DNA from: an uncultured Candidatus Saccharibacteria bacterium
GTDB lineage: Bacteria; Patescibacteriota; Minisyncoccia; Phycocordibacterales; UBA2100
Direction of reading: 5' to 3'
Length of the DNA stretch: 64,000 bases
Assembly: GCA_964437185.1 (NCBI GenBank)
Contig: CAYTFU010000002.1
Coordinates: 41,296 to 105,295 of the forward strand
Part shown: positions 6,613 through 52,166 of the stretch, one piece after another
Layout of the letters: every line of letters begins with the position of its first letter
Position numbering within the stretch: the first letter of the stretch is position 1
The notes under the pieces: generated by a model
The model's input: only the letters and a program-made list of their open reading frames with translations
The model's database searches: none
What the model was told of the DNA's origin: nothing
Position numbers and translations under genes: made by a program

Positions 6613-6613
6613 A

Positions 6614-7159: not shown

Positions 7160-7164
7160 GACCT

Positions 7165-19501: not shown

Positions 19502-19897
19502 ATGGCAAAGGATAAGGAATACCGAGAGGCAGTTGGCCGACGAAAGACGGCCACAGCGCGCGTGCGAGTTGTACCCGCAAAGAGCGCTTCCATGATCGTC
19601 AACGGAAAAGATGCGGCATCGTATTTTCCGCTCGACATAATGGTAAAGACTGCGTATGCGCCGATGAAACTCTTGGGCGCTACCTATGCCGTGTCTGCGC
19701 ACGTGCGGGGCGGAGGCTTGAAAGCGCAAGCTGAGGCGGTGCGACACGGTTTGTCGCGCGTCATGAGCGAGATTGTACCTGAACAGCGCAAAGACCTGAA
19801 GATTAAGGGTTTTTTAAAGCGCGATCCGCGGGCAAAGGAGCGCAAGAAGTTTGGCTTGAAGGCGGCACGACGTGCCCCGCAGTGGTCGAAGCGCTAG
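19502..19897 (+). CDS. rpsI: 30S ribosomal protein S9
   Basis: RRKTATARVRVVP...ends PQWSKR. Confidence 0.95.
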   Translation: MAKDKEYREAVGRRKTATARVRVVPAKSASMIVNGKDAASYFPLDIMVKTAYAPMKLLGATYAVSAHVRGGGLKAQAEAVRHGLSRVMSEIVPEQRKDLKIKGFLKRDPRAKERKKFGLKAARRAPQWSKR

Positions 19898-19923
19898 CTT
19901 CGAGCCTGCGTGAGGAGGGGGTC

Positions 19924-19943
19924 GGGGAACCCGCCGGTTCCCC
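19924..19943 (+). repeat. perfect hairpin GGGGAACC-CGCC-GGTTCCCC
   Basis: 8-bp stem read directly; first of two related hairpins between rpsI and its duplicated 3' end. Confidence 0.7.
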
Positions 19944-19957
19944 GTGAAGGAAGAAGT

Positions 19958-19977
19958 GGGAAAACCGTGGGTTTCCC
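19958..19977 (+). repeat. hairpin GGGAAA-ACCGTGGG-TTTCCC
   Basis: 6-bp stem; similar sequence family to previous hairpin. Confidence 0.6.
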
Positions 19978-19981
19978 AGAA

Positions 19982-20003
19982 CCGCGAGTGGTCGAAACGC
20001 TAG
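19982..20003 (+). repeat. imperfect duplicate of rpsI 3' end (CCGCGAGTGGTCGAAACGCTAG vs CCGCAGTGGTCGAAGCGCTAG at 19877..19897)
   Basis: 20/22 nt identical incl. stop; encodes EWSKR* vs QWSKR*. Confidence 0.6.
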
Positions 20004-20010
20004 TCGTTCG

Positions 20011-20038
20011 TTCCACTTTTAAGAGCGAGTGATATACT
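20011..20038 (+). promoter_or_regulatory. candidate promoter TTCCAC-16-TATACT for grpE-dnaK-dnaJ
   Basis: hexamers with 16-nt spacer 8 nt upstream of grpE ATG; no CIRCE inverted repeat found. Confidence 0.35.
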
Positions 20039-20046
20039 CGTTGTCT

Positions 20047-20592
20047 ATGAGTGACTCCGATCATGTAACCGACGACGTCGACTTCGAGTCAGAGGACGAT
20101 CTTGGCGCCGTCGCTGCACTAAAGGTTAAGATTCGGGCACTTCATCAATCGCTTGAACAGTGCAGAAAGGAGCGCCAAGAATACCTCGATGGCTGGCAGC
20201 GATCCAAAGCAGACGGCATAAATGCGCGTAAAGAAGCGATAGCCTCTGCGGATCGTTTGGCTACGCGATCTAAGGAGACGCTTATCGAAGACATTATCCC
20301 TACTCTCGACGCTTTCGACATGGCGATGAATAACGAATCCTGGAGCAAAATGGACTCGCAGTGGCGCTCCGGTATTGAATTTATACGCAATCAACTCTCC
20401 GACGCACTCACGCGCAACGGAGTTGAGGCGTTTGGGAAGGTTGGAGATCCTCTCGATCACAATCTGCATGAGGTAGTGAGTGAAATCGCCGATGATGAAG
20501 GGGATTCCCAGGCGATCGTCCGCGTCGTACGCAAAGGATACAAGGCGAGTGATCGAATCTTGCGTCCCGCTCATGTCGTTATTAAAAAATAG
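20047..20592 (+). CDS. grpE: nucleotide exchange factor GrpE
   Basis: coiled-coil N-term then GrpE core (IIPTLDAFDMA, VVRKGYK); start moved to ATG 20047 (MSDSDH). Confidence 0.9.
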   Translation: MSDSDHVTDDVDFESEDDLGAVAALKVKIRALHQSLEQCRKERQEYLDGWQRSKADGINARKEAIASADRLATRSKETLIEDIIPTLDAFDMAMNNESWSKMDSQWRSGIEFIRNQLSDALTRNGVEAFGKVGDPLDHNLHEVVSEIADDEGDSQAIVRVVRKGYKASDRILRPAHVVIKK

Positions 20593-20629
20593 CGCCCGCC
20601 CAACTACCAATTTCTCGCGCAAGCCAGAC

Positions 20630-20657
20630 TTGCACCGAGGCGGGAAAAAAATATAAT
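20630..20657 (+). promoter_or_regulatory. candidate internal promoter TTGCAC-16-TATAAT upstream of dnaK
   Basis: consensus-like hexamers 40 nt upstream of dnaK ATG. Confidence 0.4.
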
Positions 20658-20697
20658 TCGCTTGAAAAGACCAAAGTTATCAAATAATCTAACCACT

Positions 20698-22548
20698 ATG
20701 TCAAAAATACTTGGAATTGACCTCGGTACGACAAATTCCGCTATCGCGATCGTGAGAAGCGGCGAGCCAGAAATACTCGAAAATGCGGAAGGTGCTCGAA
20801 CCACACCATCGGTCGTCGCGGTATCAAAGACGGGCGAGCGCCTTGTGGGCCTTTTGGCAAAGCGCCAGGGCGTCACCAATCCCAAAAACACGGTCTACCA
20901 AATTAAGCGATTCATCGGACACAACTACGACGAAGCCGCAGCGCAGTCCGACAAGGCGGCTGTACCATTTGAGATTCAAAAATCGGCAAACGGTGGCATT
21001 GAGGTAAAGATGGCTGATAAGTGGCACCGACCAGAAGAGATTTCTGCGATGATACTTCAAAAACTGAAGCAGGACGCGGAGGCGCGCATCGGCGAGACCA
21101 TCACCGAGGCCGTCATCACGGTGCCTGCGTACTTCAATGACTCGCAAAGGCAGGCGACCAAAGACGCGGGCAAAATTGCAGGACTCGACGTGAAGCGCAT
21201 CATCAATGAACCAACCGCGGCAGCACTCGCGTACGGTTTCAACAAAAAGAAGAATGAAAAGATCGTCGTGTTTGACTTTGGAGGCGGTACGTTTGATATC
21301 TCGGTCCTTGAGGTAGGCGACGACGTGATCGAGGTACGATCTACCGACGGCGACGCGCACCTCGGCGGCAAGGACATTGATCAGAAGATCATGAACTGGA
21401 TAGCCGATGAGTTTAAGAAGCAATCCGGCGTCGACGTGCGCAACGATTCGCTCGCACGCCAGCGGCTCGATGAGGCGGCGGAAAAGGCCAAAATTGAGCT
21501 TTCAACTGCTCTGGAGACAGAGATCAACATCCCGTTCATCACTTCGACAGACGCAGGCCCGCAACACTTGCTGGTGAAAATGACGCGGGCCAAGCTTGAG
21601 GAACTCACAAGCGAATTTTTGGATCGCGCGATGAATATTACGAAGCGTGCCGTGGCTGCGTCGCCGTTCAAAGTAAGCGACATCAACGAAGTCGTGCTCG
21701 TCGGCGGCCAAACCCGCATGCCGGCAATCCAGAAAGCTGTTGAGACATACTTTGGAAAAAAGCCAAACTTAAGTGTCAATCCAGACGAAGTGGTTGCAAT
21801 CGGTGCTGCGATTCAGGGCGGAATCTTGCAGGGCGACGTGAAGGACGTGCTCTTGCTCGACGTGATTCCACTTTCTCTTGGCATTGAAACAATGGGGGGC
21901 ATTGCGACGAAGCTCATTGAGCGCAATACCACCATTCCGACGTCGCGCTCGCAGACATTTTCAACGGCCTCGGACAATCAGCCGTCGGTCGAGATTCACG
22001 TCGTGCAGGGTGAGCGACCGATGGCGGGAGACAATAAATCGCTTGGTCGCTTTAATCTCGACGGCATTCCACCAGCACCGCGCGGCACTCCGCAGGTCGA
22101 AGTATCGTTCGACATCGACGCCAACGGCATACTTTCTGTGAAGGCAAAAGATAAGTCTTCTGGCAAGGAGCAGTCCATTCGTATAGAAGCCACTTCGGGC
22201 CTTTCGGACGCTGAAGTGGAAAAGATGCGCAAGGATGCCGATCTCAATGCGGAGGCGGATAAAAAGAAACACGATGTAGTGGAGGCACAAAATGCAGCAG
22301 ATCAGGTAATGTACGCCGCCGAAAAAGCGCTCAAAGAACACGGCGACAAGGTTGGTGACGACATAAAGAAAAATGTGCAAGAAAAAATAGATGCACTGAA
22401 GGCGGCTCGCGCCGGCACCGATCTCGAGGCGATCAAATCGGCCTCAGACGCGCTCTCGACAGCTATGAGTGCAATCGGAAATGCAATGGCAAAGGCAAAC
22501 CAGACGCCGCCACCGAGCGAGCCAACGCCGCCCGAAGCAGACAAGTAA
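20698..22548 (+). CDS. dnaK: chaperone DnaK (Hsp70)
   Basis: [28 protein letters not shown] motifs; start at ATG 20698. Confidence 0.95.
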
Positions 22549-22625
22549 TCTGGTGTCAATCCAAAGAGCGATCGCACATGCGATCGCTCTTTGCTTTACA
22601 CGTTCTAATCACTATAATGAAAGCG

Positions 22626-23687
22626 ATGAAAGATTATTACGAAATTCTCGGAGTCGCAAAAGGCGCGAGTGAGGAAGAAATCAAGGTTGCATTTCGCAAG
22701 CTTGCGCACAAGTACCACCCCGACAAAAAAGGCGGCAACGAGGCCAAATTCAAAGAGGTGAGCGAGGCGTATTCTGTACTTTCTGATAAAAAGCGACGAG
22801 CGGAGTACGACACCTACGGGAGCGCGCATGCGGGAGGCGGCCACCAAGGTTTCTCCGGATTCGACTTTTCAAATTTCCAAGGCTTCGGACAGGGCGGGGG
22901 TGTCGAATTCGATCTCGGCGATATATTCGGCGAAATGTTTGGCGGGGGCGGCGGCTCGCGAGTACGTCGTGGCCGAGACATTTCTATCGACCTTGAGTTG
23001 TCCTTTCGCGAATCTATCTTCGGAACAGATCGCCGCGTACTTATAGGTAAGGTCGGCGCCTGCGACACCTGCGCCGGAAGCGGCGCGCGCAAGGGCTCGA
23101 AACTTATCACGTGCACCTCGTGCAATGGGAAGGGCGAAATACGCGAGACGAGGAACTCCTTCTTCGGCACATTCGCATCGTCGCGATCCTGTCCAAAATG
23201 CCACGGAAGAGGGCAAATACCGGAAGCGTCGTGCGACGCATGCAGGGGAGAGGGCGTGCGCAAACGACAGGAGGAAGTGCATATCGTCGTACCAGCTGGT
23301 GTCTCTGACGGCGAAATGATACGGATGCCCGCACGGGGCGAGGCGCTCGCGGGCGGCACGGCGGGAGACCTCTACGTAAAGCTTCACGTTAAGACTGATC
23401 CCAAGTTTTCCCGAGAAGGCAACAATCTCGCTACCATACTCTCAATCAAGCTTTCCGACGCGCTCTTAGGCGGTGAATTCCGAGTGACGTCGCTTGATGG
23501 AGAAGAGGCGATCAGTATTGAAAGTGGCGTGGTCCACGGCGATATTCTGCGCATTCGCGGCAAGGGCGTACCGCACGGGCGCGGCACTCGCGGCGATCTG
23601 CTCGTAAAGGTCAACATCCAGTTCCCAAAAAAGCTCTCTCGCCAAGCGCGAGAATTGGTAGAAAAATTACGCACAGAGGGTGTGTAG
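22626..23687 (+). CDS. dnaJ: chaperone DnaJ
   Basis: J-domain KDYYEILGV...HPDK, G/F region, four CxxCxGxG repeats. Confidence 0.9.
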
Positions 23688-23727
23688 CAATCAATTGCCG
23701 CTTGCAAAAGCGTAGTAGAATTACCGC

Positions 23728-24216
23728 ATGGACCTCAATGCGTGGTCAAGCGTTCTTTCGTCGTGGCCGCACGACTGGATTCTTATCGGCGGCATCGCAA
23801 TTTTCGTCTCGCTCGACGCGATGCGCTCTGGCTCTGCCCGCGCGGCGTCGATCGCGCTAGCCTTGCCTGCAACTCTTTTTGCCTTCAACGCAATTCCTCA
23901 GGCTTATTTTTTGGGGCCATTGCTCGCTGAATACACCGCACCAATTGTCCACATTGTTTTATTTGTCGTGTTCTTCGCACTCATTTTTTTCACTACATAT
24001 CGTACCGTCTTTGGCGCATCGGATGGGGGGCGGGTCTTACAATCGCTCCTCATCGGCCTCGCGGCCACGGCCGCTATTGTGCTCGTATGGATTCAGGTGC
24101 CAGCTCTTGAATACGCATGGCATTTTGGCGACCAAGTGCAGGCCGTCTTCGCCCCTGCGCTTAGGCTGTGGTGGTATGTCGCAATTTTCACTTCGCTTGC
24201 GTTTGCGCGGAGTTAA
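23728..24216 (+). CDS. hypothetical polytopic membrane protein
   Basis: 4-5 predicted TM helices; C-terminal 19 codons duplicated at 25779..25834. Confidence 0.6.
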   Translation: MDLNAWSSVLSSWPHDWILIGGIAIFVSLDAMRSGSARAASIALALPATLFAFNAIPQAYFLGPLLAEYTAPIVHIVLFVVFFALIFFTTYRTVFGASDGGRVLQSLLIGLAATAAIVLVWIQVPALEYAWHFGDQVQAVFAPALRLWWYVAIFTSLAFARS

Positions 24217-24222
24217 AAGGTA

Positions 24223-24251
24223 TTGGTAAATCCGCGCGAATGTGGCATAAT
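24223..24251 (+). promoter_or_regulatory. promoter TTGGTA-17-(TGg)CATAAT for mntA-hepT
   Basis: extended -10 TGGCATAAT, 8 nt upstream of mntA GTG/ATG. Confidence 0.5.
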
Positions 24252-24259
24252 GCGATCGT

Positions 24260-24667
24260 ATGGTAGCCAATTTTACACTCACAGAAACTCAACGATCGGC
24301 TATTGAAAAGCTTGGCGTTGTCCTTTTGTATCTACATGGCTCGGTGGCTGCTGGCACCGCGCGCGCAAACAGTGATGTAGACATTGCTGTTTTATTTGAA
24401 ACTACGCCGCGGGACTCGATTAGCGCGACGACCGCGGTCACGGAGGCTCTACGCGGATTGGTACCGCAACGTGAGATGGATATCGCCATACTCAATGAAG
24501 CAAATCCGCTGCTGAAACAAATAGTCGCCTCGACCGGCAATCTCCTGTACGCGCGTACAACTGACGACGCATTGAAATTTGAGCTGCGCGCCATGCACGA
24601 TTACGAATATTCTCGCCATGTCGTCCGTCTGGGGCAGGAACTTATTTTGCGCAACGTGAGCGTATGA
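24260..24667 (+). CDS. mntA: minimal nucleotidyltransferase antitoxin (MntA-like)
   Basis: GSVAAGTARANSDVDIAV = GSxxxGxxxxxSDxD NTase motif; 4-nt overlap with hepT. Confidence 0.8.
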   Translation: MVANFTLTETQRSAIEKLGVVLLYLHGSVAAGTARANSDVDIAVLFETTPRDSISATTAVTEALRGLVPQREMDIAILNEANPLLKQIVASTGNLLYARTTDDALKFELRAMHDYEYSRHVVRLGQELILRNVSV

Positions 24668-25095
24668 CCGAATTTTCTCGAGAATTACTCATGGGCAAAT
24701 TGGTGCAGTGCAGCGAGGCACTCACCGATCTGCAGCGATACCGCGAGGTCGGAACTTTGGATTACCTGCGCGACCACCAGGACATATATTACGCTGTATG
24801 TTATCGGTTTATCGGTGGCATCGAAGCCTTATTTGATGCTGGCCAAATAATTCTGGCGAGCCACGGACAGCATGCAGCCGGTGACGGCGACATACCCGTA
24901 CTTCTTGGGCGAAGGAAAATTATATCTGACGAGCTGGCTAGTGCATTCACCAATATGTACGGTTTTCGCAATCGGCTGGTGCACGCCTACGGCACGCTCG
25001 ATGATTCCAAGGTGGCCGAGTACCTTCAGAGGCATCTTGTAGATATCGAGGAGCTTATCAGTGTATTTCGAGACACGGTGACAAGCTCGGAGTGA
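24664..25095 (+). CDS. hepT: HEPN/DUF86 toxin (HepT-like RNase)
   Basis: RNRLVHAY (Rx4-6H HEPN motif) near C-terminus; classic MNT-HEPN pair. Confidence 0.8.
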   Translation: MTEFSRELLMGKLVQCSEALTDLQRYREVGTLDYLRDHQDIYYAVCYRFIGGIEALFDAGQIILASHGQHAAGDGDIPVLLGRRKIISDELASAFTNMYGFRNRLVHAYGTLDDSKVAEYLQRHLVDIEELISVFRDTVTSSE

Positions 25096-25128
25096 AGGCG
25101 AATGAGGATCAGATAGTAAATAGTCATT

Positions 25129-25608
25129 ATGGGGGAGATCGAGATACAGTCCTTGGTGGCTGAGGTCGATCGGGAGGCGGTAGAGTTTTGCCGCGAGATT
25201 TATTCTGAAATGGGATGGCCTGAACATGCCCTAGGTTCAAGCGTCGCGGCACTATTCAGTGAACCTGGTGATGCTTTTGTGACCATCAAGCAGGCCGGAA
25301 AAATTATCGGTACCGGTGGTTTTCTACGACTCTCAAAAGAAGAAGCGGTATTAAAAAGGTTTTACCTCGCAAAACATGTACGCGGTAGTGATCTCGCGCC
25401 GCGATTATTTGCCGATCTCGTAGATAGGGCGCGAGTCATTGGGTACTCCGTGCTCCTTGTGGATGTTTCTTCAACCAACGTACGTGCGATACGATTCTAT
25501 GAGAAGGAGGGTATGAAGGAGTTTTTTGGTGTCTCACCCCACCCGCGCTGGGAAGGATCCTCACCCGAAAGGCAGAAAACTGACCGATATTTTCGCTTAA
25601 AACTCTAA
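25129..25608 (+). CDS. GNAT family N-acetyltransferase
   Basis: acetyl-CoA binding-like region RLFADLVDRARVIGYSVLLVDV...RFYEKEG. Confidence 0.7.
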   Translation: MGEIEIQSLVAEVDREAVEFCREIYSEMGWPEHALGSSVAALFSEPGDAFVTIKQAGKIIGTGGFLRLSKEEAVLKRFYLAKHVRGSDLAPRLFADLVDRARVIGYSVLLVDVSSTNVRAIRFYEKEGMKEFFGVSPHPRWEGSSPERQKTDRYFRLKL

Positions 25609-25856
25609 TTCAACCTGAGGTGATCCATGCTTCATTTTCACATTGTCGCCCGCAAGAGAGCGGAGTAGTTCCGTCAGAGAAACAGAGAATTTACCACAGC
25701 CCTCTCTTGCCTTATCGACAGCAAGGTTTAGAGTACACCCTATGGGTGCGTTTTCATGGAGACTTCTCGAGGACGCACTAAGACGGTGGTGGTATGTCGC
25801 AATCTTCACTTCGCTTGCGTTTGCAAGAAGCTGAGAAAATCAGCGCCTCCATACCT

Positions 25857-25884
25857 TTGCACTGGCTGATTTACGTGTTATAAT
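25857..25884 (+). promoter_or_regulatory. promoter TTGCAC-16-TATAAT upstream of EamA transporter gene
   Basis: consensus hexamers; -10 ends 6 nt before ATG (short leader). Confidence 0.45.
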
Positions 25885-25890
25885 CTGAAT

Positions 25891-26787: not shown

Positions 26788-26789
26788 AT

Positions 26790-28247: not shown

Positions 28248-28274
28248 CCTTACGTTTTGTTGTATAATGATTGC

Positions 28275-29792
28275 ATGAGGAAATTCAAAACGGTCTTCGA
28301 GCAGTTGCCCACGCCCGTTAGCATCGCCGTTTTGCTCGTCATAATTGTGATTGTTATTACCACCTCGTGGACGCTATACAATCACACGGTCGACATTCTC
28401 ACGCAGAATTTAAGAGACCGTTTGCAGACTATCTCTGTTACCCAAGCGGCCAATGTCGATGCCTCGGATATTGAGGCACTTCAGGTAGAGGAGGATTGGA
28501 AAAAACCAGAGTGGGAACATCTGGTAAGTAAATTGCACAAAGCAAAGTACAGTAATGGTCAAATTGTTTTTATATACATTTTCCGAAAAACCAAGGATGA
28601 CCCGACCAAAATGGAATTCGTTGCAGACGCTGATTCAATTGACCCATATGCAAACATTAACAATAATCCAACCGGAGAAATAGTTTCCGCATCAACATGC
28701 CCTTTGTGCGTTGACTCCAACAGAGATGGAAAAATCGACAGAGAACATGCTGATAGGCTGCAGTGGCCCGGCATGCTGTTCCCCGAAATAGAAGGTGTGC
28801 CGGAAGCTTTTGCGGCATATAACGGCCCGATTACTGTGCCGGATATTTACACGGACGAATACGGCTCAGTTCTTACGGGCTTTGCTCCCATCACAAACGC
28901 AAGCGGGACTGTCGTAGCGATTCTGGGAACCGACATAAAAGCCGACGACTTTCTCACAATCACAAGGCAGACGCTGTATCCGTTTCTTGCGTTTATCGCC
29001 GCGCTGACGCTGATTATCGCCGTTTTGGCGGCATCGCTCATTTATATTTGGTCTCGACGTGCAAACATGTTAGCAAGACTTTCGCGTAGCCTAGAAATAG
29101 CTAATGCCCAGCAGGAAGGCCTTTTGCACTTTATTAGTCATGAGATCAAGGGCTACCTTACCAACAGCGAAGCAGGGTTTGCTTCCATCGCGGAGGGGGA
29201 TTACGGAGAGGTTACCCCTCAATTGAAAACCATGGCCACAAGCGCCCTCGCGAATGTCCGCAGGGGAGTGAGCACGGTGGTCGACATACTTCGTGCGGCG
29301 GATATGAAGCGAGGCACGGTCTCGTACAGAAAAGACCCTGTCGACGTGCGAGCGGTCGTCGAGAATGTTATCAACACACTTCGACCAAACGTCACAGAAA
29401 AAGGCCTAACTCTCGAGACCAACATCGCAGATGGGTCGTACACCACCTCGGGCGATGAGGAGAAACTTCGCAACAACGTCCTCCGCAACCTCATCGACAA
29501 CGCCATCCGATACACGCCGACCGGAACGATTACCATCAGCCTTTCCAACGCTGGCGGTACAATACGTTTTTCGGTAAAGGACAGCGGTGTCGGAATTACT
29601 GAGGAGGATAAGAAGCGATTATTTACTGAGGGTGGGCACGGCAAAGAATCCATAAAAACCAACGTCCATTCCACCGGCTACGGCCTCTTTATCGCAAAGC
29701 AAGTAGTAGACGCCCACGGCGGCAAAATCTGGGCCGAATCGGAAGGGGAGGGCAAAGGCTCCACGTTTGTTGTAGAGCTCCCCACTGCATAG
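28275..29792 (+). CDS. sensor histidine kinase with extracytoplasmic Cache-like domain (no adjacent response regulator)
   Basis: TM-periplasmic domain-TM, H-box HEIKGYLT, N/G boxes DNAIRYTP, DSGVGI, GYGLFIAKQVV. Confidence 0.85.
   Translation: MRKFKTVFEQLPTPVSIAVLLVIIVIVITTSWTLYNHTVDILTQNLRDRLQTISVTQAANVDASDIEALQVEEDWKKPEWEHLVSKLHKAKYSNGQIVFIYIFRKTKDDPTKMEFVADADSIDPYANINNNPTGEIVSASTCPLCVDSNRDGKIDREHADRLQWPGMLFPEIEGVPEAFAAYNGPITVPDIYTDEYGSVLTGFAPITNASGTVVAILGTDIKADDFLTITRQTLYPFLAFIAALTLIIAVLAASLIYIWSRRANMLARLSRSLEIANAQQEGLLHFISHEIKGYLTNSEAGFASIAEGDYGEVTPQLKTMATSALANVRRGVSTVVDILRAADMKRGTVSYRKDPVDVRAVVENVINTLRPNVTEKGLTLETNIADGSYTTSGDEEKLRNNVLRNLIDNAIRYTPTGTITISLSNAGGTIRFSVKDSGVGITEEDKKRLFTEGGHGKESIKTNVHSTGYGLFIAKQVVDAHGGKIWAESEGEGKGSTFVVELPTA
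29722..29792 (+). repeat. HK 3'-end copy 1 (direct repeat with 30095..30165)
   Basis: first 44 nt identical to copy 2, remainder differs mostly at codon third positions. Confidence 0.7.
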
Positions 29793-29806
29793 TAGAATGC
29801 GTTGGT

Positions 29807-30055: not shown

Positions 30056-30094
30056 CAGTGCATTAGACTTGATTCTTTTCTATAAAAAGTAGAC

Positions 30095-30165
30095 ACTCGC
30101 AAGTGCAAAATCTGGGCCGAATCGGAAGGGGAGGGCAAAGGCTCCACCTTCATTGTCGAACTTCC
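30095..30165 (+). repeat. HK 3'-end copy 2 (encodes KIWAESEGEGKGSTFIVELPAA*)
   Basis: in-frame pseudo-C-terminus of histidine kinase with conservative changes V>I, T>A and TAG>TAA. Confidence 0.7.
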
Positions 30166-30207
30166 CGCAGCTTAAAATATCGACGATTTTCTGCTATCAT
30201 AGGTCGC

Positions 30208-31143
30208 ATGACACGCCTTTTTACTGGCCTCCAGCCATCTGGATCGCTTCATATTGGCAACTATTTTGGCGCACTGAAGCAGACCGTCGAGCTTCTTCGA
30301 GACGCGGACGGATTGGTGATGATTGCGGATTACCATGCCCTCACGAGCCTCAAAGATGTACCCGCGCTTCGAAAAAATATTGGAGATGTGGTGCGCGATT
30401 ACGTGGCGGTGGGAGTTGATCCAAAGAAGGCGGTGATCTTTCAGCAGTCCTCCGTTTCGGCGCACACTGAGCTCGCATGGATTTTTGATTGCCTCGTCAC
30501 AGTTCCATTTCTCATGCAGGCCCACGCATACAAAGATAAAGTAGCAAAAGGATTGGAGGCCAACGCCGGCCTCTTCACATATCCCATGCTCATGGCTGCG
30601 GATATATTGCTCTACGACACCGACGTCGTACCCGTGGGCGCCGACCAGAGGCAGCACGTCGAGTACGCGCGCGAGGCCGCGACAAAGTTTAACAACGCAT
30701 TTGGCGAGACGTTTAGAATTCCGCAAGAAAAGATTCTTGACTCAGTCGCAATTGTGCCTGGTACCGATGGCAAAAAAATGAGCAAGAGCTATGGCAACAC
30801 TATCCCGCTGTTCGGTACTAAGGACGAAATCCAAAAAGCGGTGATGAGCATCGTTACCGACTCAAATGCAGAGAGCCCTGAAAACGTATACAACATTCAC
30901 CGACTTTTTAGGAGGAGGGAGGAGCTTTCCGTACTTTACACAGAGAACAAAGGGAAATATAAGGCTCTAAAAGACGCGCTCGTCGAGGATATTGAAGGCA
31001 TGATCGCCCCGATGCGCGCGCGACGCGAGAGTCTTACCGATGAGGATGTGCGGGCGATTCTTAAGGATGGGGGCGATAGGGCGCGTGAGCAAGCCGACAA
31101 AAAAATGTCTATTATTCGCCAAGCGGTCGGCGTGGCAATATAA
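30208..31143 (+). CDS. trpS: tryptophanyl-tRNA synthetase
   Basis: start ATG 30208 (MTRLFTGLQPSGSLHIGNYFG), KMSKS present. Confidence 0.9.
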   Translation: MTRLFTGLQPSGSLHIGNYFGALKQTVELLRDADGLVMIADYHALTSLKDVPALRKNIGDVVRDYVAVGVDPKKAVIFQQSSVSAHTELAWIFDCLVTVPFLMQAHAYKDKVAKGLEANAGLFTYPMLMAADILLYDTDVVPVGADQRQHVEYAREAATKFNNAFGETFRIPQEKILDSVAIVPGTDGKKMSKSYGNTIPLFGTKDEIQKAVMSIVTDSNAESPENVYNIHRLFRRREELSVLYTENKGKYKALKDALVEDIEGMIAPMRARRESLTDEDVRAILKDGGDRAREQADKKMSIIRQAVGVAI

Positions 31144-31166
31144 CGATTTACGAAACCACTAATTTT

Positions 31167-33865: not shown

Positions 33866-33868
33866 TCT

Positions 33869-34858: not shown

Positions 34859-34863
34859 ATTTT

Positions 34864-35928
34864 ATGCTGACCACATCGATCGTAATTATCCTCATTCCCG
34901 CTACAATCGCATTTATCGCGGGCATGCTTGGCGCGCCGATACTCATTAATTACCTCTACGCACAGAAGGCGTGGAAAAAAAAGGCGGGTAAGCAAGCGCT
35001 TGATGGCAACATTGCGCACGAATTTAATAAACTTCACATCCACAATGAGGTACGAGCGCCTCGCATGGGCGGGATTGTAGTGTGGGCGAGCGCGACCGTG
35101 ACGATCATGATGCTCTCGCTGCTTTCATACCTTTTTCCAAGCCCCGTCACAAAAGAACTCGATTTCTTAAGTCGCGGACAGACCTGGATCCCGCTCGCGA
35201 CCCTCCTAATCGGCGCGTTCGTGGGACTTATCGACGACCTGCTGGTGATACGGCCGTCGGGCGAGGGCTTGCGGCTGCGATATCGGCTGATAACCGTCGT
35301 TGTGTTATCTACCTGCATCGCATGGTGGTTTTGGGCGAAGCTCGGGGTGACGGCGATCAACATTCCTTTTTCTTCACCTCTCGAAATTGGCTGGCTGTTG
35401 ATACCATTTTTTGTTTTTGTGTCTCTCTGCCTCTACGCCTCAGGGGTTATTGATGGGGTTGATGGCCTTTCGGGGGGCGTATTCGCGACTATTTTTGCTT
35501 CTTACACGATTATTGCATTTGCTCAAAATCAAATCGACCTCGCGGCGTTCACGGCGTCGATCGCGGGTGGTCTCCTCGCGTTTTTGTGGTTTAACGTTCC
35601 TCCCGCGCGATTCTACATGAGCGACACCGGCACGATGGCCCTCACCCTCACGCTCGGGGTTGTCGCGCTGATGACAGACAATCTCGGGGAAGGGATCGGT
35701 ATTGCGGTGCTCCCGATTATCGGGATGCTCCTTGTCATCACCGTGCTTTCAGATATCGCCCAAGTTATTTCCAAAACATTTTTTGGGACCAAGCTGTTTC
35801 GCATCGCTCCGCTCCACCACCATTTCGAGGCGATCGGTTGGTCGAGCGCCAAGGTGACCATGCGATACTGGATTCTTTCCGTTATGTTTTCGTTTCTTGG
35901 CGTAATCCTCGCACTGCTCGCCATCTAA
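34864..35928 (+). CDS. mraY: phospho-N-acetylmuramoyl-pentapeptide transferase
   Basis: RAPRMGGIVV, GLIDDLL, VDGLSGG motifs, 10 TM. Confidence 0.85.
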   Translation: MLTTSIVIILIPATIAFIAGMLGAPILINYLYAQKAWKKKAGKQALDGNIAHEFNKLHIHNEVRAPRMGGIVVWASATVTIMMLSLLSYLFPSPVTKELDFLSRGQTWIPLATLLIGAFVGLIDDLLVIRPSGEGLRLRYRLITVVVLSTCIAWWFWAKLGVTAINIPFSSPLEIGWLLIPFFVFVSLCLYASGVIDGVDGLSGGVFATIFASYTIIAFAQNQIDLAAFTASIAGGLLAFLWFNVPPARFYMSDTGTMALTLTLGVVALMTDNLGEGIGIAVLPIIGMLLVITVLSDIAQVISKTFFGTKLFRIAPLHHHFEAIGWSSAKVTMRYWILSVMFSFLGVILALLAI

Positions 35929-35955
35929 GCGCAACGGGGGTGGTACTATTTCGGC

Positions 35956-37053
35956 ATGCGTCAGGGGAAAATCGATAAACCACTACTTCTTCTTCTCATT
36001 GTACTGGTACTTGGGGGCGTCGCTATTTTTGCTTCTGCCGCGTTTGGACTTCTCGCGAGAGGTCAAGACGGAATGAGTTCGGTGGCCTTCAACCACCTCG
36101 TGCTGGGCGTGGGCCTCGGCATGGCTGGACTCGCCGTATTCGCGCACGTGAATTACCGCCACTCCAAACCATACGCGCTACACCTCTTTGCGTTCACCAT
36201 CTTCGGCACCGCGCTCGTATTCATTCCGCAAATAGGCTTCTCTCATGGCGGTGGCACGCGCTGGCTCGACATCTTCGGACTCTCAGTTCAACCCTCTGAG
36301 GCACTCAAGCTCGGGGCAATTATCTTCACTGCGGCGTATTTTTCAGGAGCCAAGGGCCGTGCGGAGTCGCTCACGTGGGGACTCGGCGGTTTTTTTGCAA
36401 TCATTTCACTTCCGACCCTCATACTACTGTTACAGCCCGACATCGGTACGCTCATAATCGTGTGCATGCCTATTTTTGTTATGTACCTTCTCGCTGGCGC
36501 TCGCCTTCGACATGTGGCGATTGCGATTATTGTGGCGCTTTTGTGCTTCGGCGCCATCTTGATTGTAAAACCGCACGCACGCGCCCGCGTCACGACATTT
36601 CTCAACCCTGCCCAAAATCAACTTGCCTCGGGATACCAAATACGGCAATCCCTCATCGCCATCGGATCGGGTGAATTTCTCGGCCGTGGGCTCGGGCAGG
36701 GCGTGCAGAAATTTACTTACCTACCGGAGCCAATGGGGGATTCAATTTTTGCCGTTGCGGGTGAGGAATTTGGGTTTGTGGGCGCTACCACCATCGTGCT
36801 GCTTTTCTTGGGGTTTGGACTTCGCGGCTTCGGAATCGCAGCCCGCACGAGCGACCTCTTCGGGGCGCTGCTCGCTGTCGGCATTTCGACCTACCTTGTC
36901 GGTGAGGCGTTCATCAATATCGCCGCAATGCTCGGCCTTGCACCCCTTACAGGAGTCCCACTAACCTTCGTGAGCCAGGGAGGGAGCGCCATGCTCGTTT
37001 CCCTTGCCAGCGCGGGTATTCTTCTGAGCATCTCTCGAAATCAGAGAAAATGA
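35956..37053 (+). CDS. ftsW: SEDS-family peptidoglycan glycosyltransferase FtsW/RodA
   Basis: 10 TM, FtsW/RodA/SpoVE signature near C-terminus (PLTGVPLTFVSQGGSA). Confidence 0.85.
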   Translation: MRQGKIDKPLLLLLIVLVLGGVAIFASAAFGLLARGQDGMSSVAFNHLVLGVGLGMAGLAVFAHVNYRHSKPYALHLFAFTIFGTALVFIPQIGFSHGGGTRWLDIFGLSVQPSEALKLGAIIFTAAYFSGAKGRAESLTWGLGGFFAIISLPTLILLLQPDIGTLIIVCMPIFVMYLLAGARLRHVAIAIIVALLCFGAILIVKPHARARVTTFLNPAQNQLASGYQIRQSLIAIGSGEFLGRGLGQGVQKFTYLPEPMGDSIFAVAGEEFGFVGATTIVLLFLGFGLRGFGIAARTSDLFGALLAVGISTYLVGEAFINIAAMLGLAPLTGVPLTFVSQGGSAMLVSLASAGILLSISRNQRK

Positions 37054-37118
37054 GCCAACAGGTTGTGCACCGTACAAGCTTGACGATATGACATACAATG
37101 TATATCATACAGACATCC

Positions 37119-37382
37119 ATGAAGTTCTTTGAATGGGACACCCGAAAGAACGAGTGGCTTATTAAAAATCGTGGGATCTCGTTTGAGATGTGCATCACGT
37201 GCATAGAGCAAGGGCACCTGTTGGCCGACACCTACAACGAACCGGCCCGTCCGCTCCAAAGGGTGTTTATTATCAACATTGAGGGATATGCGTATAAGGT
37301 GCCATACGTAGAGGATGAGGAGAAGATCTTTCTCAAAACAGCCTTCCCAAGTCGAGACGCAACGAGACAGTATCTGCGCTAA
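37119..37382 (+). CDS. brnT: BrnT-family toxin (DUF497, RelE-like RNase)
   Basis: MKFFEWDTRKNEWLIKNRGISFEM N-terminus typical of BrnT. Confidence 0.75.
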   Translation: MKFFEWDTRKNEWLIKNRGISFEMCITCIEQGHLLADTYNEPARPLQRVFIINIEGYAYKVPYVEDEEKIFLKTAFPSRDATRQYLR

Positions 37383-37400
37383 ACATCGCATAACACAAAT

Positions 37401-37664
37401 ATGAAGCCAAAAAATAACGTGCGACTAACCAAAGAAGAGCGGGAGATGGAGGCCGCATTTGCACGCGGAGAGTACAAGTCCATGCCGAATTTTAAAGCAG
37501 CGAAGACGCAGTATGAGGCTGCGGCACGTTATACGCTCACAAAAACACGCACCATCACGGTACGCATGACCGAGCGTGACATGATGCGACTCAAAGCAGC
37601 TGCCGCCCGCGAAGGCCTGCCGTATCAGACGCTCATTACCTCCATCCTGCATAAGCATGTGTAG
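37401..37664 (+). CDS. brnA: BrnA-family antitoxin (RHH/CopG-like)
   Basis: small basic protein immediately downstream of brnT, C-terminal ribbon-helix-helix-like (RMTERDMMRLKAAAAREGLPYQTLITSIL). Confidence 0.7.
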   Translation: MKPKNNVRLTKEEREMEAAFARGEYKSMPNFKAAKTQYEAAARYTLTKTRTITVRMTERDMMRLKAAAAREGLPYQTLITSILHKHV

Positions 37665-37697
37665 GATTTAAGCTCTCGCTCGTGATAAAATGACCCG

Positions 37698-38840
37698 ATG
37701 CGTATAGCACTTGTCGGCGGGGGATCAGGGGGGCATTTTTACCCCCTCATAGCGGTCGCTGAGGCGATAGAAGACATTTCTAAAGAGAGGACACTCCTCG
37801 AACCCGACCTTGTGTACATTGGCCCGCCCGCTTTCGACCCGCAATCCCTCCTTGAACACGACATCCAATACGTGGCTGGAAGCGCCGGACCCATCCGAAG
37901 GTACTTTAGCGTGCTCAATGTTTTTAGCGTATTTTTGAATGCTTTTGGCATCATTAGATCGACGATGACCCTTTTCCGACTCTATCCGGATGTTATTTTC
38001 TCAACAGGGGGATTCGCAGCGTTCCCCACGCTTTACGCTGCACGCCTCCTCCAAATACCGGTCGTTATTTACGATGCCGATGCCTCGCCCGGGAGAGTTT
38101 CCCTCTGGTCGGCGAAATTTGCGCAATGGATTGCAGTGGCGCATCCTGATGCCGCAAAGCAATTTCCAGAAAAGACGCGATCAAAGGTTGCTCGCACGGG
38201 CCATCCGATCCGCAAAGAGATTGTTGAACCATCCAAGCAGGGAGGTCACGAGTTTTTAAAACTTGATCCCGCCGCCCCGACCATCTTCATCATGGGCGGC
38301 TCGCAGGGCGCGCGCGCGATCAACGAAGCGGTGCTCGACGCACTCCCGCAACTCGTGACGCGGTACAACGTCGTCCACCAAGTGGGATCCGCGAATCTCG
38401 AAGAGGTGAGCGGCATCTCCTCCGTTTCGCTCAAAAATTCAAACTTTGCCAACCGCTACAAAGTCTTTGGGCTACTCAACGTCCTCGCGATGCGCATGAC
38501 TGCGGGCATCACTTCCGTCGTCGTGGCTCGCGCGGGGTCCGGAACAATTTTTGAAATTGCGAGCTGGGGCATACCCGCGATCATTATTCCGATTCCAAAA
38601 GACGTGTCACACGATCAGCTGGACAACGCGTTTTCTTATGCACGCGCAGGAGGTGCGGTGGTTATCGAACAAAATAACCTTTCGCCTCATCTTCTCATTT
38701 CCGAGATCGACCGCCTGATGAGCGATCCCGAGCAGCGGAGCTCTATGACAAACGCTGCTCGCGCCTACGCGCGCCCCGACGCAGCTCGCGCCATTGCGAC
38801 CGCGCTTCTTGAGATTTCTATTGAGCACGAACCGGCCTGA
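37698..38840 (+). CDS. murG: undecaprenyldiphospho-muramoylpentapeptide beta-N-acetylglucosaminyltransferase
   Basis: MRIALVGGGSGGHFYP N-terminus, GT28 architecture. Confidence 0.9.
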   Translation: MRIALVGGGSGGHFYPLIAVAEAIEDISKERTLLEPDLVYIGPPAFDPQSLLEHDIQYVAGSAGPIRRYFSVLNVFSVFLNAFGIIRSTMTLFRLYPDVIFSTGGFAAFPTLYAARLLQIPVVIYDADASPGRVSLWSAKFAQWIAVAHPDAAKQFPEKTRSKVARTGHPIRKEIVEPSKQGGHEFLKLDPAAPTIFIMGGSQGARAINEAVLDALPQLVTRYNVVHQVGSANLEEVSGISSVSLKNSNFANRYKVFGLLNVLAMRMTAGITSVVVARAGSGTIFEIASWGIPAIIIPIPKDVSHDQLDNAFSYARAGGAVVIEQNNLSPHLLISEIDRLMSDPEQRSSMTNAARAYARPDAARAIATALLEISIEHEPA

Positions 38841-38928
38841 TCCGCGACAAAACTGACATGAACCTTTCCTCACATATCATCTCTACAAACCACAACATGT
38901 ACATCCGAGCAAGCATATGGAGCGGGTT

Positions 38929-40272
38929 ATGAGTATCGTTAAGGTGCGTTTCCCACCGAGCCCGACGGGCTATTGCCATGTCGGCACCGCTCGAATGGCG
39001 ATTCTTAATTATTTATTTGCGCGAAAACACGGCGGGAGCATTGTATTTCGCAGCGAGGACACCGACAAGGAGCGCAGCCGCGCGGAGTACGAAGACGACA
39101 TTCGAGAAAGTCTTAGCTGGCTCGGACTTTCGTGGGACGAGTTTTATCGCCAGTCTGAGCGCACCCACGTATACACTACCGCGCTTCTACAACTCATCCG
39201 CGAGGGGAAAGCATACGTCTCCGAGGAGGAGAGTAAAAAAGAACCTGGCGTACGCGTGCGTCCGGTACGACTCAAAAACCCGGGCACCGTTATCACGTTT
39301 GCAGATGAGATCCGCGGTGAGATTACGTTTGATACGGCAGAACTCAAAGATTTTGTCATTGCGCGCTCGATCAACGATCCGCTGTATCACCTTGCAGTGG
39401 TCGTCGACGATCACGATATGGGGATCACGCACGTGATTCGCGGCGAAGATCACATCTCAAACACACCTCGGCAAATTCTGATTCAGGAGGCGCTTGGATA
39501 TTCGCGGCCCGTGTACGCGCACTACCCGCTGCACCTTTCAGCAGACAGAGCGAAGCTCTCTAAACGCACGGGCGATGTGGCCGTCCGATCGTATCGAGAA
39601 AAAGGATACCTGTCCGGAGCACTACTCAATTACCTCGCGACACTTGGCTGGACGCCACCATCGGGTAGGGAGATATTGAGTCTTGATGATATGGTCAGCG
39701 AATTTGAACTCAAAGACGTGCACAAAAGCGGGGCAATTTTCGATCTCGAAAAGTTGCGCTGGTACAACAGACACTACTTGCACGAACTTTCACCCGGAGA
39801 ATTTGCCGCAGAAGCGTCGATTATCCTCTCCGAAGAAATGCACACTCGCGGTATTACGGTCACAGACGACCTTGTACTAAAATTATGGCCGATTATACGC
39901 GAGCGAATAGGCGTGTGGGAGGATTTGCGTGAGGCGATTCGCGATGCCGAGTTTGATTTCTTTTTCAAAGACCCGGTATTGGATTCCGCCCGTATATCGC
40001 AAAAAGGAGTCGAGCCAAACGTGACGCTGAAGCACCTCGCCGCTTGTGCGGAGATGCTGACCTCTGTCACCGAGGAGGATTTTACCGAGTCACACATCAA
40101 GGATCGGCTGTGGCCCTACGCAACATCAGAGGGTCGCGGGGCTGTTTTATGGCCGCTACGATACGCGCTCTCGGGCCTCGAAAAATCACCGGACCCCTTT
40201 GTAATCCTCGGGATCATAGGGAAAGAGACGGCACTGAGGCGTATTGAGGCAGCTCGATCGCAGCTTGTATGA
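38929..40272 (+). CDS. gltX: glutamyl-tRNA synthetase
   Basis: RFPPSPTGYCHVGTAR (HIGH-class), KLSKR; start could also be 38917. Confidence 0.9.
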   Translation: MSIVKVRFPPSPTGYCHVGTARMAILNYLFARKHGGSIVFRSEDTDKERSRAEYEDDIRESLSWLGLSWDEFYRQSERTHVYTTALLQLIREGKAYVSEEESKKEPGVRVRPVRLKNPGTVITFADEIRGEITFDTAELKDFVIARSINDPLYHLAVVVDDHDMGITHVIRGEDHISNTPRQILIQEALGYSRPVYAHYPLHLSADRAKLSKRTGDVAVRSYREKGYLSGALLNYLATLGWTPPSGREILSLDDMVSEFELKDVHKSGAIFDLEKLRWYNRHYLHELSPGEFAAEASIILSEEMHTRGITVTDDLVLKLWPIIRERIGVWEDLREAIRDAEFDFFFKDPVLDSARISQKGVEPNVTLKHLAACAEMLTSVTEEDFTESHIKDRLWPYATSEGRGAVLWPLRYALSGLEKSPDPFVILGIIGKETALRRIEAARSQLV

Positions 40273-41564
40273 ATAGAGGACTCGCCGTTATCTCGGTACT
40301 CTGCGTACTGCTGTGCTTACCGTCCAATTCCTTCGCCCAAAATGCGCCTGCCTCAGAGGAGCGCATCAACTCCTTACAATCGCAGATTGACACCCACAAA
40401 TCTGAGATCGAAAAAATTGACCGGGAAATTGCGCAATATCAACAGCAGCTTGACGCTGTCGGGACCAAAAAGAAAACACTTCAAAACACACTTTCGCAGC
40501 TGGATCTTCAGATAAAAAAAGCGACTGCGTCGATAAACGTCACAAAAAATAAAATTAGTGCAACGCAGCTCGAAATTCTCCAGCTTGAGAAGGGAATTGC
40601 AGGCAAAGAAGTTTCTATCGAAACGGGGAACCAGGGCCTGCGAGAGTCCCTGCGTCGACTCAATGAGATTGGAACCAATCCTCTTGCAGTGCAAGTGCTT
40701 TCCTCAATCGACATCTCCGAAGCGTGGGAAGACGCGGACGCTATTCAAGAACTCCAAGTGGCAGTGCGCGATCAAATCGCACGACTCGCTTCGGAGAAAC
40801 AATCACTCACGGAGACAAAAAACCAGACCGAGGCGAAGCGCGCGCAATTGGTGAAGCAAAAGGATACTCTGCTTGCGCAGCAAGGCTCGCTCACGGCTCA
40901 AAAAAAGGCGCAGAACGAGCTTCTCGTTCAGACCAAATCACAGGAATCCACCTACCAATCAATTTTGAAACAAAAACAGGCGGCAAAAGCCACGTTTGAA
41001 GCAGCGCTTGGTGATCTTAAAATCCAGTTCCAGAGAGCTATTAGGCCCTCGGAAATTTTGGCCGCCGGAAAGGGGATATTGCGCTGGCCGCTCGACAACG
41101 TGCGCATCACACAGCAATTTGGAAACACCGCCTTCGCGGCTTCTGGTGCATATAATGGCAAGGGACACAACGGCATCGACCTCGCCGCTCCCGTCGGCAC
41201 ACCGCTGAGAGCGGCTCTTAATGGCGTAGTTTTGGGGACGGGCAACACGGATAGCATAAAGGGCTGCTACTCATTTGGACGGTGGGTGATGATTAAGCAC
41301 CCCAATGGGATCAACACCATGTACTCGCACCTCTCCCAAATCAACGTTGCAGAGGGCCAAAACGTCGATACAGGGCACATAATCGGCTACAGCGGGGAAA
41401 CGGGCTATGCCACAGGCCCACACCTTCACTTCGGCGTGTACGTCAGCTCGGCAACGGCAATCATTCGCCTCGGCGCCGCGAGCAATTCGACCACCCCGTG
41501 CTCAAACGCCGTCATGCCCGTCGCACCCCTATCGGGATACTTAAATCCGATGAATTATCTCTAG
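40269..41564 (+). CDS. M23 family metallopeptidase with N-terminal coiled coil (EnvC-like)
   Basis: signal peptide, long coiled coil, C-terminal LytM domain GHNGIDLAAP...PHLHFGVY. Confidence 0.8.
   Translation: MNRGLAVISVLCVLLCLPSNSFAQNAPASEERINSLQSQIDTHKSEIEKIDREIAQYQQQLDAVGTKKKTLQNTLSQLDLQIKKATASINVTKNKISATQLEILQLEKGIAGKEVSIETGNQGLRESLRRLNEIGTNPLAVQVLSSIDISEAWEDADAIQELQVAVRDQIARLASEKQSLTETKNQTEAKRAQLVKQKDTLLAQQGSLTAQKKAQNELLVQTKSQESTYQSILKQKQAAKATFEAALGDLKIQFQRAIRPSEILAAGKGILRWPLDNVRITQQFGNTAFAASGAYNGKGHNGIDLAAPVGTPLRAALNGVVLGTGNTDSIKGCYSFGRWVMIKHPNGINTMYSHLSQINVAEGQNVDTGHIIGYSGETGYATGPHLHFGVYVSSATAIIRLGAASNSTTPCSNAVMPVAPLSGYLNPMNYL
41520..41564 (+). repeat. M23 gene 3'-end copy 1
   Basis: 45 nt; direct repeat with 41620..41664. 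Confidence 0.75.
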
Positions 41565-41597
41565 TACCGAGATACTCCTAACCTGAAATGAGTCTAG

Positions 41598-41620
41598 CCC
41601 CGTGGTGAAAACGCACGGGG
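41598..41620 (+). repeat. hairpin CCCCGTG-GTGAAAACG-CACGGGG inside 55-nt insert
   Basis: 7-bp perfect stem. Confidence 0.6.
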
Positions 41621-41664
41621 TCGCACCCCTATCGGGATATCTAAATCCGATGAACTATCTCTAG
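41620..41664 (+). repeat. M23 gene 3'-end copy 2 (encodes identical VAPLSGYLNPMNYL*)
   Basis: 3 differences from copy 1, all synonymous third-position changes. Confidence 0.75.
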
Positions 41665-51986: not shown

Positions 51987-52166
51987 ACGATTTCTGCTTG
52001 CCCGTCCGAAGCTTTCCTGACCTTCGTAGCTTTAGCGAAGTAGGTAGCGAAGGAGGGCCACTTTTTCTCAATTTTGGTATGGTCGTACTTCTTCATTGGA
52101 TGAGCGTATCATATCCCTCCGCAAAGGAAAAACCTCTGCACCAACGGTCCTCTCGCCTCTGCAGCC

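Follow-up and report, generated by a model that had tools for sequence, protein, structure and literature searches.

At the ends of five genes in a 64-kb stretch of contig CAYTFU010000002.1 (the whole of this stretch is hereafter the window), a diverged second copy of the terminal codons lies a short distance from the live gene end, and we lean towards reading these structures as scars left by DNA that was imported horizontally at the extreme ends of conserved genes. At four of the loci, namely rpsI, a membrane-protein gene, a histidine kinase (HK) gene and an M23 peptidase gene, the 3' end is repeated downstream of inserted DNA, and all four repeat pairs claimed in a preliminary description of the stretch were found where it had placed them; T1 denotes here the upstream copy, which is the live gene end, and T2 the downstream copy or relic. 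The fifth case concerns the 5' end of leuS, and therefore the signature is not confined to 3' ends but marks gene ends in general. The inserted cargo is heterogeneous, comprising MntA/HepT and GNAT genes at the membrane-protein locus, a small coiled-coil gene (cc) at the HK locus, 32 nt at M23 and 70 nt at leuS; the rpsI insert stands apart from these, as a copy of a widespread non-coding element.

The duplicates exceed chance in a scan in which the first and last 25 residues of every gene were compared, at the protein level, with 3 kb on each side. C-terminal matches downstream scored 108, 94 and 75 for the HK, membrane-protein and M23 genes, respectively, against a background of at most 40, and the remaining strong matches were one tandem paralogue pair and the leuS 5' end, with nothing else. 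The repeats measure 17-87 nt, their identical blocks lie at the left, in the middle or at the right, and T1 and T2 are 82-93% identical with a divergence of the coding type: over the five loci, 24 of the differing codons are synonymous and 7 non-synonymous (P = 1.6e-10 versus random substitution), and 24 of the 37 base differences occupy third codon positions, the synonymous changes including CGG to AGA for arginine and the exchange of one stop for another. The claim that both copies diverged as coding sequence is thus borne out, and simple decay of a duplicate made in place is therefore ruled out; the accompanying statement that the stop codons differ holds for two of the four 3' loci, HK (TAG/TAA) and the membrane-protein gene (TAA/TGA), the stop being TAG in both copies of rpsI and of the M23 gene.

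Synonymous-only differences look like strain variation, and some Logan contigs do break at the repeats, as would be expected of an assembly chimera of two co-occurring strains. Nevertheless, contigs from other samples and two assemblers (MEGAHIT and Logan; these contigs and the related genomes carry L-numbered labels) match every locus gap-free at 99.87% identity or more, L001, L002 and L037-L044 spanning the rpsI and membrane-protein loci, L180 and L181 the succession HK, cc, relic and trpS, and L179 the M23 locus; one k=31 Logan contig ends exactly 30 nt into the 43-nt HK repeat, and the same architecture also recurs in unrelated genomes. As independent contigs cross every locus, a chimera was rejected, and its probability can be regarded as negligible. 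Three Logan contigs, of different samples, have one of their ends at window positions 24639-24647, at the mntA/hepT overlap, and a shorter hepT is called in one MEGAHIT assembly; these breaks may represent strain variation inside the cassette.

The direction of the events is suggested by 32 related loci with conserved gene order, obtained from a scan of species-representative genomes. Empty sites were found in relatives at three loci: 17-25 nt separate rpsI from grpE in L005 and L182, the membrane-protein gene runs directly into EamA in L009 and L010, and HK is followed directly by trpS in L010, L011 and L015, which points to the inserts as gains; at the membrane-protein locus, the closer relatives L182 and L183 show a variable region downstream and not a clean empty site. 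The native junctions of relatives align collinearly with T2, the intergenic stretch adjoining it and the gene that follows, and on this ground T2 is the displaced original end of the resident gene. At the HK locus, the relic and its intergenic region read cccgcagcttaaaatatcg..ttttctgctatcatagg..ATG, collinear with the L010 junction cccgccgcagcttaaaatatcc..ttttctgctattatagg..ATG, and at the rpsI locus the relic is followed by the conserved 'tatactcg' region upstream of grpE.

The HK locus also offers the clearest indication of where the upstream copy came from. Its repeat (29705-29791 versus 30088-30174) is 87 nt long and 82% identical, with the leftmost 17 nt of the relic scrambled, a correction to the preliminary description. 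T2 has FIVELPAA and TAAAATATC in common with L010, a genome without cc, and T1 has FVVELP and the following TAGTAGAAT in common with cc-bearing genomes. The protein encoded by cc is 83% identical to its counterpart in L045, yet the HK of that genome is only 55% identical; HK, trpS and asxS are nearest to the cc-less L010, L011 and L015 (61-84%), against only 55-71% for L045. Such discordant affinities show that the cc cargo is foreign, imported from another lineage, and T1 would have arrived with it. In L035 and L045-L058, cc lies between HK and trpS with no relic, and in L016 it occupies another site; the family is conserved in Kaiserbacteria and had no Pfam match. In the window, a second cc paralogue of 91 aa (60378-60653, minus strand) separates atpG from atpD, the start of which is 2 nt away; no flanking repeat was found around it. 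In the distant relative L012 (15280-15870), HK is followed by a 102-aa open reading frame (ORF) in the position of cc, with no similarity to cc by tblastn, and by a more diverged relic of the HK 3' end (FWVESDDGGKGARFIVEFTV, then a stop).

Under the import reading, DNA of a related but diverged lineage would have been joined into the terminal codons of a gene, bringing the donor's gene end (T1) and whatever adjoined it; the resident end (T2) would not have been replaced but pushed downstream, still joined to its native intergenic region and to the next gene. T1 and T2 would then both have been live coding ends in different lineages, hence the mainly synonymous differences, stops included. As for the recombination route, we infer a join through short gene-end homology, with one junction in or beside the repeated end and the second upstream of the resident end, so that the end would be duplicated and not deleted; in a compact genome, only this duplication keeps both flanking essential genes. 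No dedicated integrase acting on a fixed att site would take part. The coordinates of the features are collected in Table 1.

Table 1. Duplicated gene ends, inserted cargo and associated arms in the window.
Feature	Position	Strand	Remarks
rpsI 3' end, live copy T1, CCGCAGTGGTCGAAGCGCTAG	19877-19897	+	Pfam Ribosomal_S9 for 19502-19897; repeat
Left arm at rpsI	19898-19910	+	near reverse complement of the last 16 nt of rpsI
Structured core	19913-19980	+	GGAGG-GGGTC, hairpin GGGGAAC/GTTCCCC, GTGNNGGA, second hairpin with loop ACCGWGGGU
Displaced rpsI 3' end T2, CCGCGAGTGGTCGAAACGCTAG	19982-20003	+	followed by native rpsI-grpE intergenic region
Membrane-protein gene 3' end, live copy T1	24157-24216	+	peptide ALRLWW..ARS, stop TAA
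Hairpin arm TAAATCCGCGCGAA	24227-24240	+	pairs with T1-specific codons GCG CGG, not with T2 codons GCA AGA
Cargo, mntA-like nucleotidyltransferase	24260-24667	+	Pfam Polbeta/NTP_transf_2, E = 1e-15
Cargo, hepT	24664-25095	+	Pfam HepT-like, E = 6.5e-22; overlaps mntA-like gene
Cargo, GNAT acetyltransferase	25129-25608	+	Pfam; whole cargo 24260-25608
Displaced membrane-protein gene 3' end T2	25775-25834	+	peptide ALRRWW..ARS, stop TGA; 56 nt 5' of EamA
HK 3' end, live copy T1	29705-29792	+	stop TAG; 43-nt block 29722-29764 identical in T2
Cargo, small coiled-coil gene cc, 82 aa	29807-30055	+	83% identical to P0152 in L045
Displaced HK 3' end T2	30088-30175	+	stop TAA; followed by native intergenic region and trpS (30208-31143)
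M23 peptidase 3' end, live copy T1	41494-41564	+	Pfam Peptidase_M23 and repeat alignment
Spacer between M23 copies, 32 nt	41566-41597	+	repeat alignment
Displaced M23 3' end T2	41598-41664	+	left part with indels, aligned to 41494-41565
leuS 5' end, first 13 codons, live copy	51948-51986	-	scan; Pfam tRNA-synt_1 and Leu editing domain
leuS 5'-end relic, MKKYDHTKIEKKW	52058-52096	-	70 nt upstream of live copy

At the membrane-protein locus, the neighbouring and overlapping genes for a nucleotidyltransferase and a HepT-like RNase identify the cargo as an MntA/HepT toxin-antitoxin pair. Homologues of mntA-hepT are located between HK and trpS in L030, and a GNAT homologue with 80% nucleotide identity occupies another site in L006; the 30 members of the family of the membrane protein itself (23728-24216) all belong to Kaiserbacteria-like genomes or metagenome-assembled genomes (MAGs), and on this basis the window is assigned to a Candidatus Kaiserbacteria genome of the Patescibacteria. 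The M23 duplicate was confirmed, with three differences, all synonymous, in the gap-free part (41520-41564 versus 41620-41664), although the 55-nt insert with a hairpin that had been described there is in fact a shorter spacer, and the hairpin (CCCCGTG-gtgaaaacg-CACGGGG) is formed by the left part of T2, that is, partly by decayed coding sequence. The leuS relic heads a 37-codon ORF, the TGA of which overlaps the true ATG, and the pair differs at five synonymous and three non-synonymous codons. LeuS itself (48615-51986, minus strand) has 1123 aa and includes in-frame alpha/beta-hydrolase (aa 243-449) and NUDIX (aa 591-684) domains.

In the rpsI insert, the 21-nt repeat shows one 1-nt indel and one AAG/AAA change between T1 and T2. 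The left arm forms a hairpin over the stop codon (TCGAAGC-gcta-GCTTCGA), and the same feature is present in L026, L161 and L034, each fitted to its own rpsI allele. The central 79 nt of the insert are 92% identical to the same position in L026, a genome in which RpsI is 78% and the membrane protein only 33% identical, and a diverged copy of the core is found in L034. A second copy of the terminal WSKR with its stop is present only in genomes with the core, and in L026 it differs from the live end by synonymous differences only (TCG AAG CGT versus AGT AAA CGA). Only at rpsI and at the membrane-protein gene is a left-arm hairpin spanning the stop codon conspicuous, the arm of the latter ranking joint top among 65 genes for complementarity between the 3' end and downstream sequence; at HK and M23 it is at background level, and the feature was consequently rejected as universal. 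A core shared by all loci was likewise rejected, since the M23, leuS, HK and membrane-protein inserts had no match to the covariance model R1, built from 47 cores, to which the rpsI core is the sole match in the window (83.4 bits, E = 2e-22); among 524 kb of Kaiserbacteria loci, R1 matched only L026 and L034, in both cases after rpsI.

A metagenome scan with a 22-nt pattern from the rpsI core returned at least 120 loci and at least 116 distinct copies, the usual layout being the target T1, an inverted copy of T1, the core and a direct copy of the target, T2. T1 is very often the 3' half of a tRNA; other targets are rpsI, HK and genes for proteins ending, at the stop, in AGAKVTLK and HKEAKK. 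The inverted copy makes a long hairpin with T1, sometimes enclosing a terminator, and the core of about 70 nt comprises GGAGG, the hairpin GGGGAAC/GTTCCCC, GUGNNGGA and a second hairpin with the loop ACCGWGGGU. The second helix, P3, covaries, as does a 4-bp pairing of junction bases with the loop (U:A, G:U and A:U at one position), and the core is probably pseudoknotted. A flanking direct repeat is present in 72 of 106 copies among the matches listed (median 27 nt), with a range of 12-86 nt in the family, and the T1-T2 differences at genuine protein-gene targets are mostly synonymous. Where the two copies differ, the left arm complements T1 rather than T2 (91 versus 5 positions; 37 versus 17 in the reciprocal test), and cores at least 95% identical, assigned to lineages by their loop sequences, occur at many different targets, each with target-derived arms. 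No Rfam family was matched at the gathering threshold by the core or elsewhere in the window, with only weak chance matches (E up to 10); Rfam recognised only tRNAs on 18 element-bearing loci, and literature searches by motif sequence and by concept returned no description of the element, so that, as far as Rfam and the searchable literature go, the family is undescribed. In L148 (720-900) and L154, the element lies 9 nt before the HK stop, the ORF continues across the inverted arm into core sequence, gaining a new tail, and the original HK end (..TFWIELPVK, then the stop) follows downstream with two or three synonymous differences.

Several observations weigh against import as the full explanation. 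No sampled genome carries T2 as the live allele, nor T1 without the insert; among 120 HK homologues, none matches T2 exactly as a live C-terminus, with partial likeness in P0033 and P0034, and even for the nearest relatives protein identity is only about 60-70%. The assignment of donor and recipient relies on collinearity and a few diagnostic codons, because no matching live alleles were sampled, and sliding-window identity was uninformative on the left boundary of the imported HK segment at 60-80% divergence. Relatives show 8-12 differences within the 43-nt block that the two HK copies share unchanged; a simple single crossover of diverged alleles would not give such identity, which points to some true target duplication or later gene conversion. 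In some copies of the element T1 equals T2, non-coding terminator sequence included (45/46 in L084 and 22/22 in L127), and retargeting the core to new genes requires arms copied from the new target, a replicative step that import leaves unspecified. The identical HK block, the identical T1 and T2 copies and the arm that tracks the local allele together argue for a replicative target-copying step, at least when the element moves, and a recombinase or a Y1 transposase may be encoded outside the window and act in trans.

In a different explanation, possible but doubtful in our view, the rpsI insert would represent an undescribed class of tiny non-coding mobile elements (~100-250 nt) in the candidate phyla radiation (CPR), nucleic-acid-guided and moved by a trans-acting protein. 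The pseudoknotted core would then reach highly expressed genes (tRNAs, ribosomal-protein genes and kinases) at their 3' ends, with complementarity to the target as the guide, and the target would be written twice beside it, once inverted and once in direct orientation. The element would terminate and rewrite gene ends, and the same process might carry toxin-antitoxin and small-ORF cassettes.

The preliminary description had interpreted the duplicates as scars of site-specific integration into gene 3' ends, with mobilisation in trans or a distinct, possibly undescribed process as its two options. A replacement end, a displaced end and empty sites are indeed what was found, and the geometry resembles attL and attR; T1 and T2 would on this view be the hybrid sites left by an attP that carries a gene 3' end, and the recombinase would act from elsewhere (as for cis-mobilizable elements, CIMEs) or would later have been lost. 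The 3' ends of tRNA genes and of rpsI are known integration targets, for instance of streptococcal integrative and mobilizable elements (IMEs). In four genomes, moreover, the left part of the rpsI relic carries the same derived extra G (CCGCGAGTGG) and the right part differs between genomes, as expected of a P-O-B' hybrid, and many relics at tRNA targets have a common altered T-loop (GTGAGATTCC). On the other hand, a recombinase was found neither in the window, which by Pfam encodes no integrase, transposase, relaxase or reverse transcriptase (the absence of the first three having already been claimed), nor near the element, no recurrent mobility gene appearing within 4 kb on either side of 116 copies among the matches listed; nor did the core match any of 2.9 million viral contigs, for which reason a phage origin was rejected. 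Five targets in 64 kb would need five specificities; the cargoes are unrelated to one another; repeat length varies (17-87 nt, reaching 144 nt in L016), as does the placement of the identical blocks; inserts are as small as 32-106 nt; one core lineage resides at many unrelated targets, which fixed attP/attB specificity would not predict; and the left arm follows the local T1 allele. A single site-specific integrase, which the 5' case does not suit either, is therefore unlikely; recombination through the gene end fits better, and the distinct insertion process is the more likely of the two options.

Duplication in place followed by divergence, in which selection might maintain T2 for its pairing with the left arm in an RNA switch or a terminator, is rather improbable. 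Identity of T1 and T2, non-coding flank included, in 13 of 72 family copies among the matches listed, the 43-nt identical block in HK and one of 51 nt in L016 would all suit it, as would the copying of arms from the target whenever a core lineage reaches a new gene. Long target duplication without mobility genes is, in addition, documented for restriction-modification cassettes (PMC2853133). Free drift, however, predicts that about half or more of the differing codons be non-synonymous, against the 24 synonymous and 7 non-synonymous in the window and some 34 versus 7 at the clear protein targets of the family by our own tally (39 versus 24 when all 16 ORF calls are taken). T2 mismatches the left arm where the copies differ, and pairing therefore does not constrain T2, and the affinities of cc and its T1 depart from those of T2 and the flanking genes.

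For the rpsI-type element only, a hairpin element like repetitive extragenic palindromes (REPs) or palindrome-associated transposable elements (PATEs), moved in trans by an IS200-like Y1 transposase of the HUH type (REP-associated tyrosine transposase, RAYT) present once per genome, is highly improbable. A Y1_Tnp gene is found in the relative L015 (18493-19128, Pfam E = 8e-20), flanked by 41-nt direct repeats whose final GAGGGGTCAG is similar to the GGAGGGGGTCGG with which the core begins; L126 has, immediately before a core, a 40-aa fragment that is 50% identical, where aligned, to the N-terminus of the L015 protein, with no Pfam match, and conserved hairpins downstream of genes are also the form of REPs. 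Such adjacency, however, occurs in only one of 116 copies among the matches listed, and is no more than a lead; copy number is apparently low, roughly a few per Mb; and we know of no target duplication or target-derived arms in IS200/IS605 and REP elements. The 41-nt repeats of L015 (18411-19140) include the last 9 codons of the Y1 gene itself, and no rpsI was found upstream of the fragment-bearing core of L126 (1206-1330).

Three further candidates were rejected: a diversity-generating retroelement, as all base types are changed with third-position bias, not adenine-specifically, and the window has no reverse transcriptase; a transposon or miniature inverted-repeat element with target-site duplication, as there are no terminal inverted repeats and the duplications are 17-87 nt long and diverged; and translational bypass as in T4 gene 60 or mitochondrial byps, as in every case the insert follows a complete gene that has its own stop.

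Pfam gives the gene order around the inserts as rplM, rpsI, grpE, dnaK, dnaJ, the membrane-protein gene, the mntA, hepT and GNAT insert, EamA, an Orn/Lys/Arg decarboxylase gene, HK, the cc insert, trpS, asxS, scpA and scpB, then, after further genes, ftsW, a CopG-type pair, murG, gltX and the M23 peptidase gene; no tRNA or tmRNA was found in the window. The small gene pair between ftsW and murG (37098-37664), with CopG/RHH antitoxin matches in the second gene, has no detectable flanking repeat. A heme biosynthesis cluster, unusual for CPR, is present at 4659-9732 (ALAD, porphobilinogen deaminase, HemD, a chlorite-dismutase-like protein, URO-D and ferrochelatase). Other repeats were observed in relatives. 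In L016 (17377-18180), a two-ORF pair, toxin-antitoxin-like by its translation, is flanked by the 144-nt repeat (85% identity), which spans the last ~35 codons of the upstream gene, the intergenic region and the next ATG, with synonymous divergence in the left part and 51 identical nt at the right. In the related MAG L035 (1140-6850), an intergenic element of about 190 nt precedes rpsM, rpsK, rpsD, rplQ, rpsI and dnaK, consisting of a long hairpin (CCGACACCACTTTTGAAAC..GTTCAAAAGTGGTGTCGG) and a conserved leader that ends at the ATG; its best three copies are 84-93% identical, and the rest 66-69% or partial. Intergenic repeat families of other relatives include a 36-nt repeat with four copies in L020 (5160-9177) and a 156-nt repeat with three in L010 (9503-13809); perfect 55-nt direct repeats stand 155 nt apart at a gene 5' end in L023 (3089-3298) and L028 (2565-2774), and direct repeats of 23-27 nt stand ~780 nt apart in an enlarged grpE-dnaK gap (~900 nt) in L015 and L024.

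The small genomes of CPR or Patescibacteria are highly syntenic and contain few mobile elements that can be recognised, and the loci described here may represent a concrete route for the gain of accessory genes in them, with cassettes entering at terminal codons together with a foreign gene end; the displaced end would be a datable scar that can be searched for systematically. The target-derived arms suggest targeting without a fixed att site, which, if true, would amount to a new minimal mobile element and a possible programmable insertion system; on the conservative reading, the abundant structured element is a new family of RNA or DNA motifs, and the scars usefully mark recombination between diverged lineages.

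Compared with known systems, the small hairpins downstream of genes, the lack of a transposase in cis and the Y1_Tnp in related genomes recall REP/RAYT and IS200/IS605 palindrome elements, although copy number is high there, and the conserved loop and likely pseudoknot of the present core suggest an RNA. The homing spacers of CRISPR-associated transposons and the bridge RNA of IS110 offer a functional likeness only, a conserved gene end being kept beside a structured scaffold; the proteins and RNA folds of those guide-carrying elements were not found here, and the arm best complements the local allele and not an element-borne copy. Integrative elements at the 3' ends of tRNA and protein genes (genomic islands, integrative and conjugative elements, IMEs and integrase-less CIMEs) are alike in the replacement end, the direct repeat on the far side, the empty sites and the targets, and unlike in that no integrase is present here in cis, inserts range from 32 nt to 1.6 kb, repeats vary, the target copy is inverted and one core serves many targets. 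In the mobile ORFs of Allomyces atp6, in fungal mitochondria, a foreign C-terminal segment is imported, the original C-terminus is left downstream and a homing endonuclease is encoded; the hybrid gene with an imported 3' end, cargo and a relic downstream is likewise seen here, but no nuclease is encoded, and toxin-antitoxin genes, a small ORF or non-coding sequence make up the cargo. Insertion with long target duplication (Nobusato et al. 2000; Furuta et al. 2010, PMC2853133) involves restriction-modification cassettes without mobility genes, mostly in naturally competent bacteria, flanked by direct target repeats of 46-423 bp, some of which overlap a gene 3' end; the two repeats there hardly differ, either between themselves or from the unoccupied target. 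The loci of the window also combine a lack of mobility genes with selfish cargo (toxin-antitoxin), and repeats longer than 30 bp with an empty site, which define that category, are found at HK (87 nt), the membrane-protein gene (60 nt) and M23 (~70 nt), the rpsI repeat being 21 nt; they depart from it in that the repeats are 7-18% different, at synonymous sites, and in the foreign affinity of the upstream copy.

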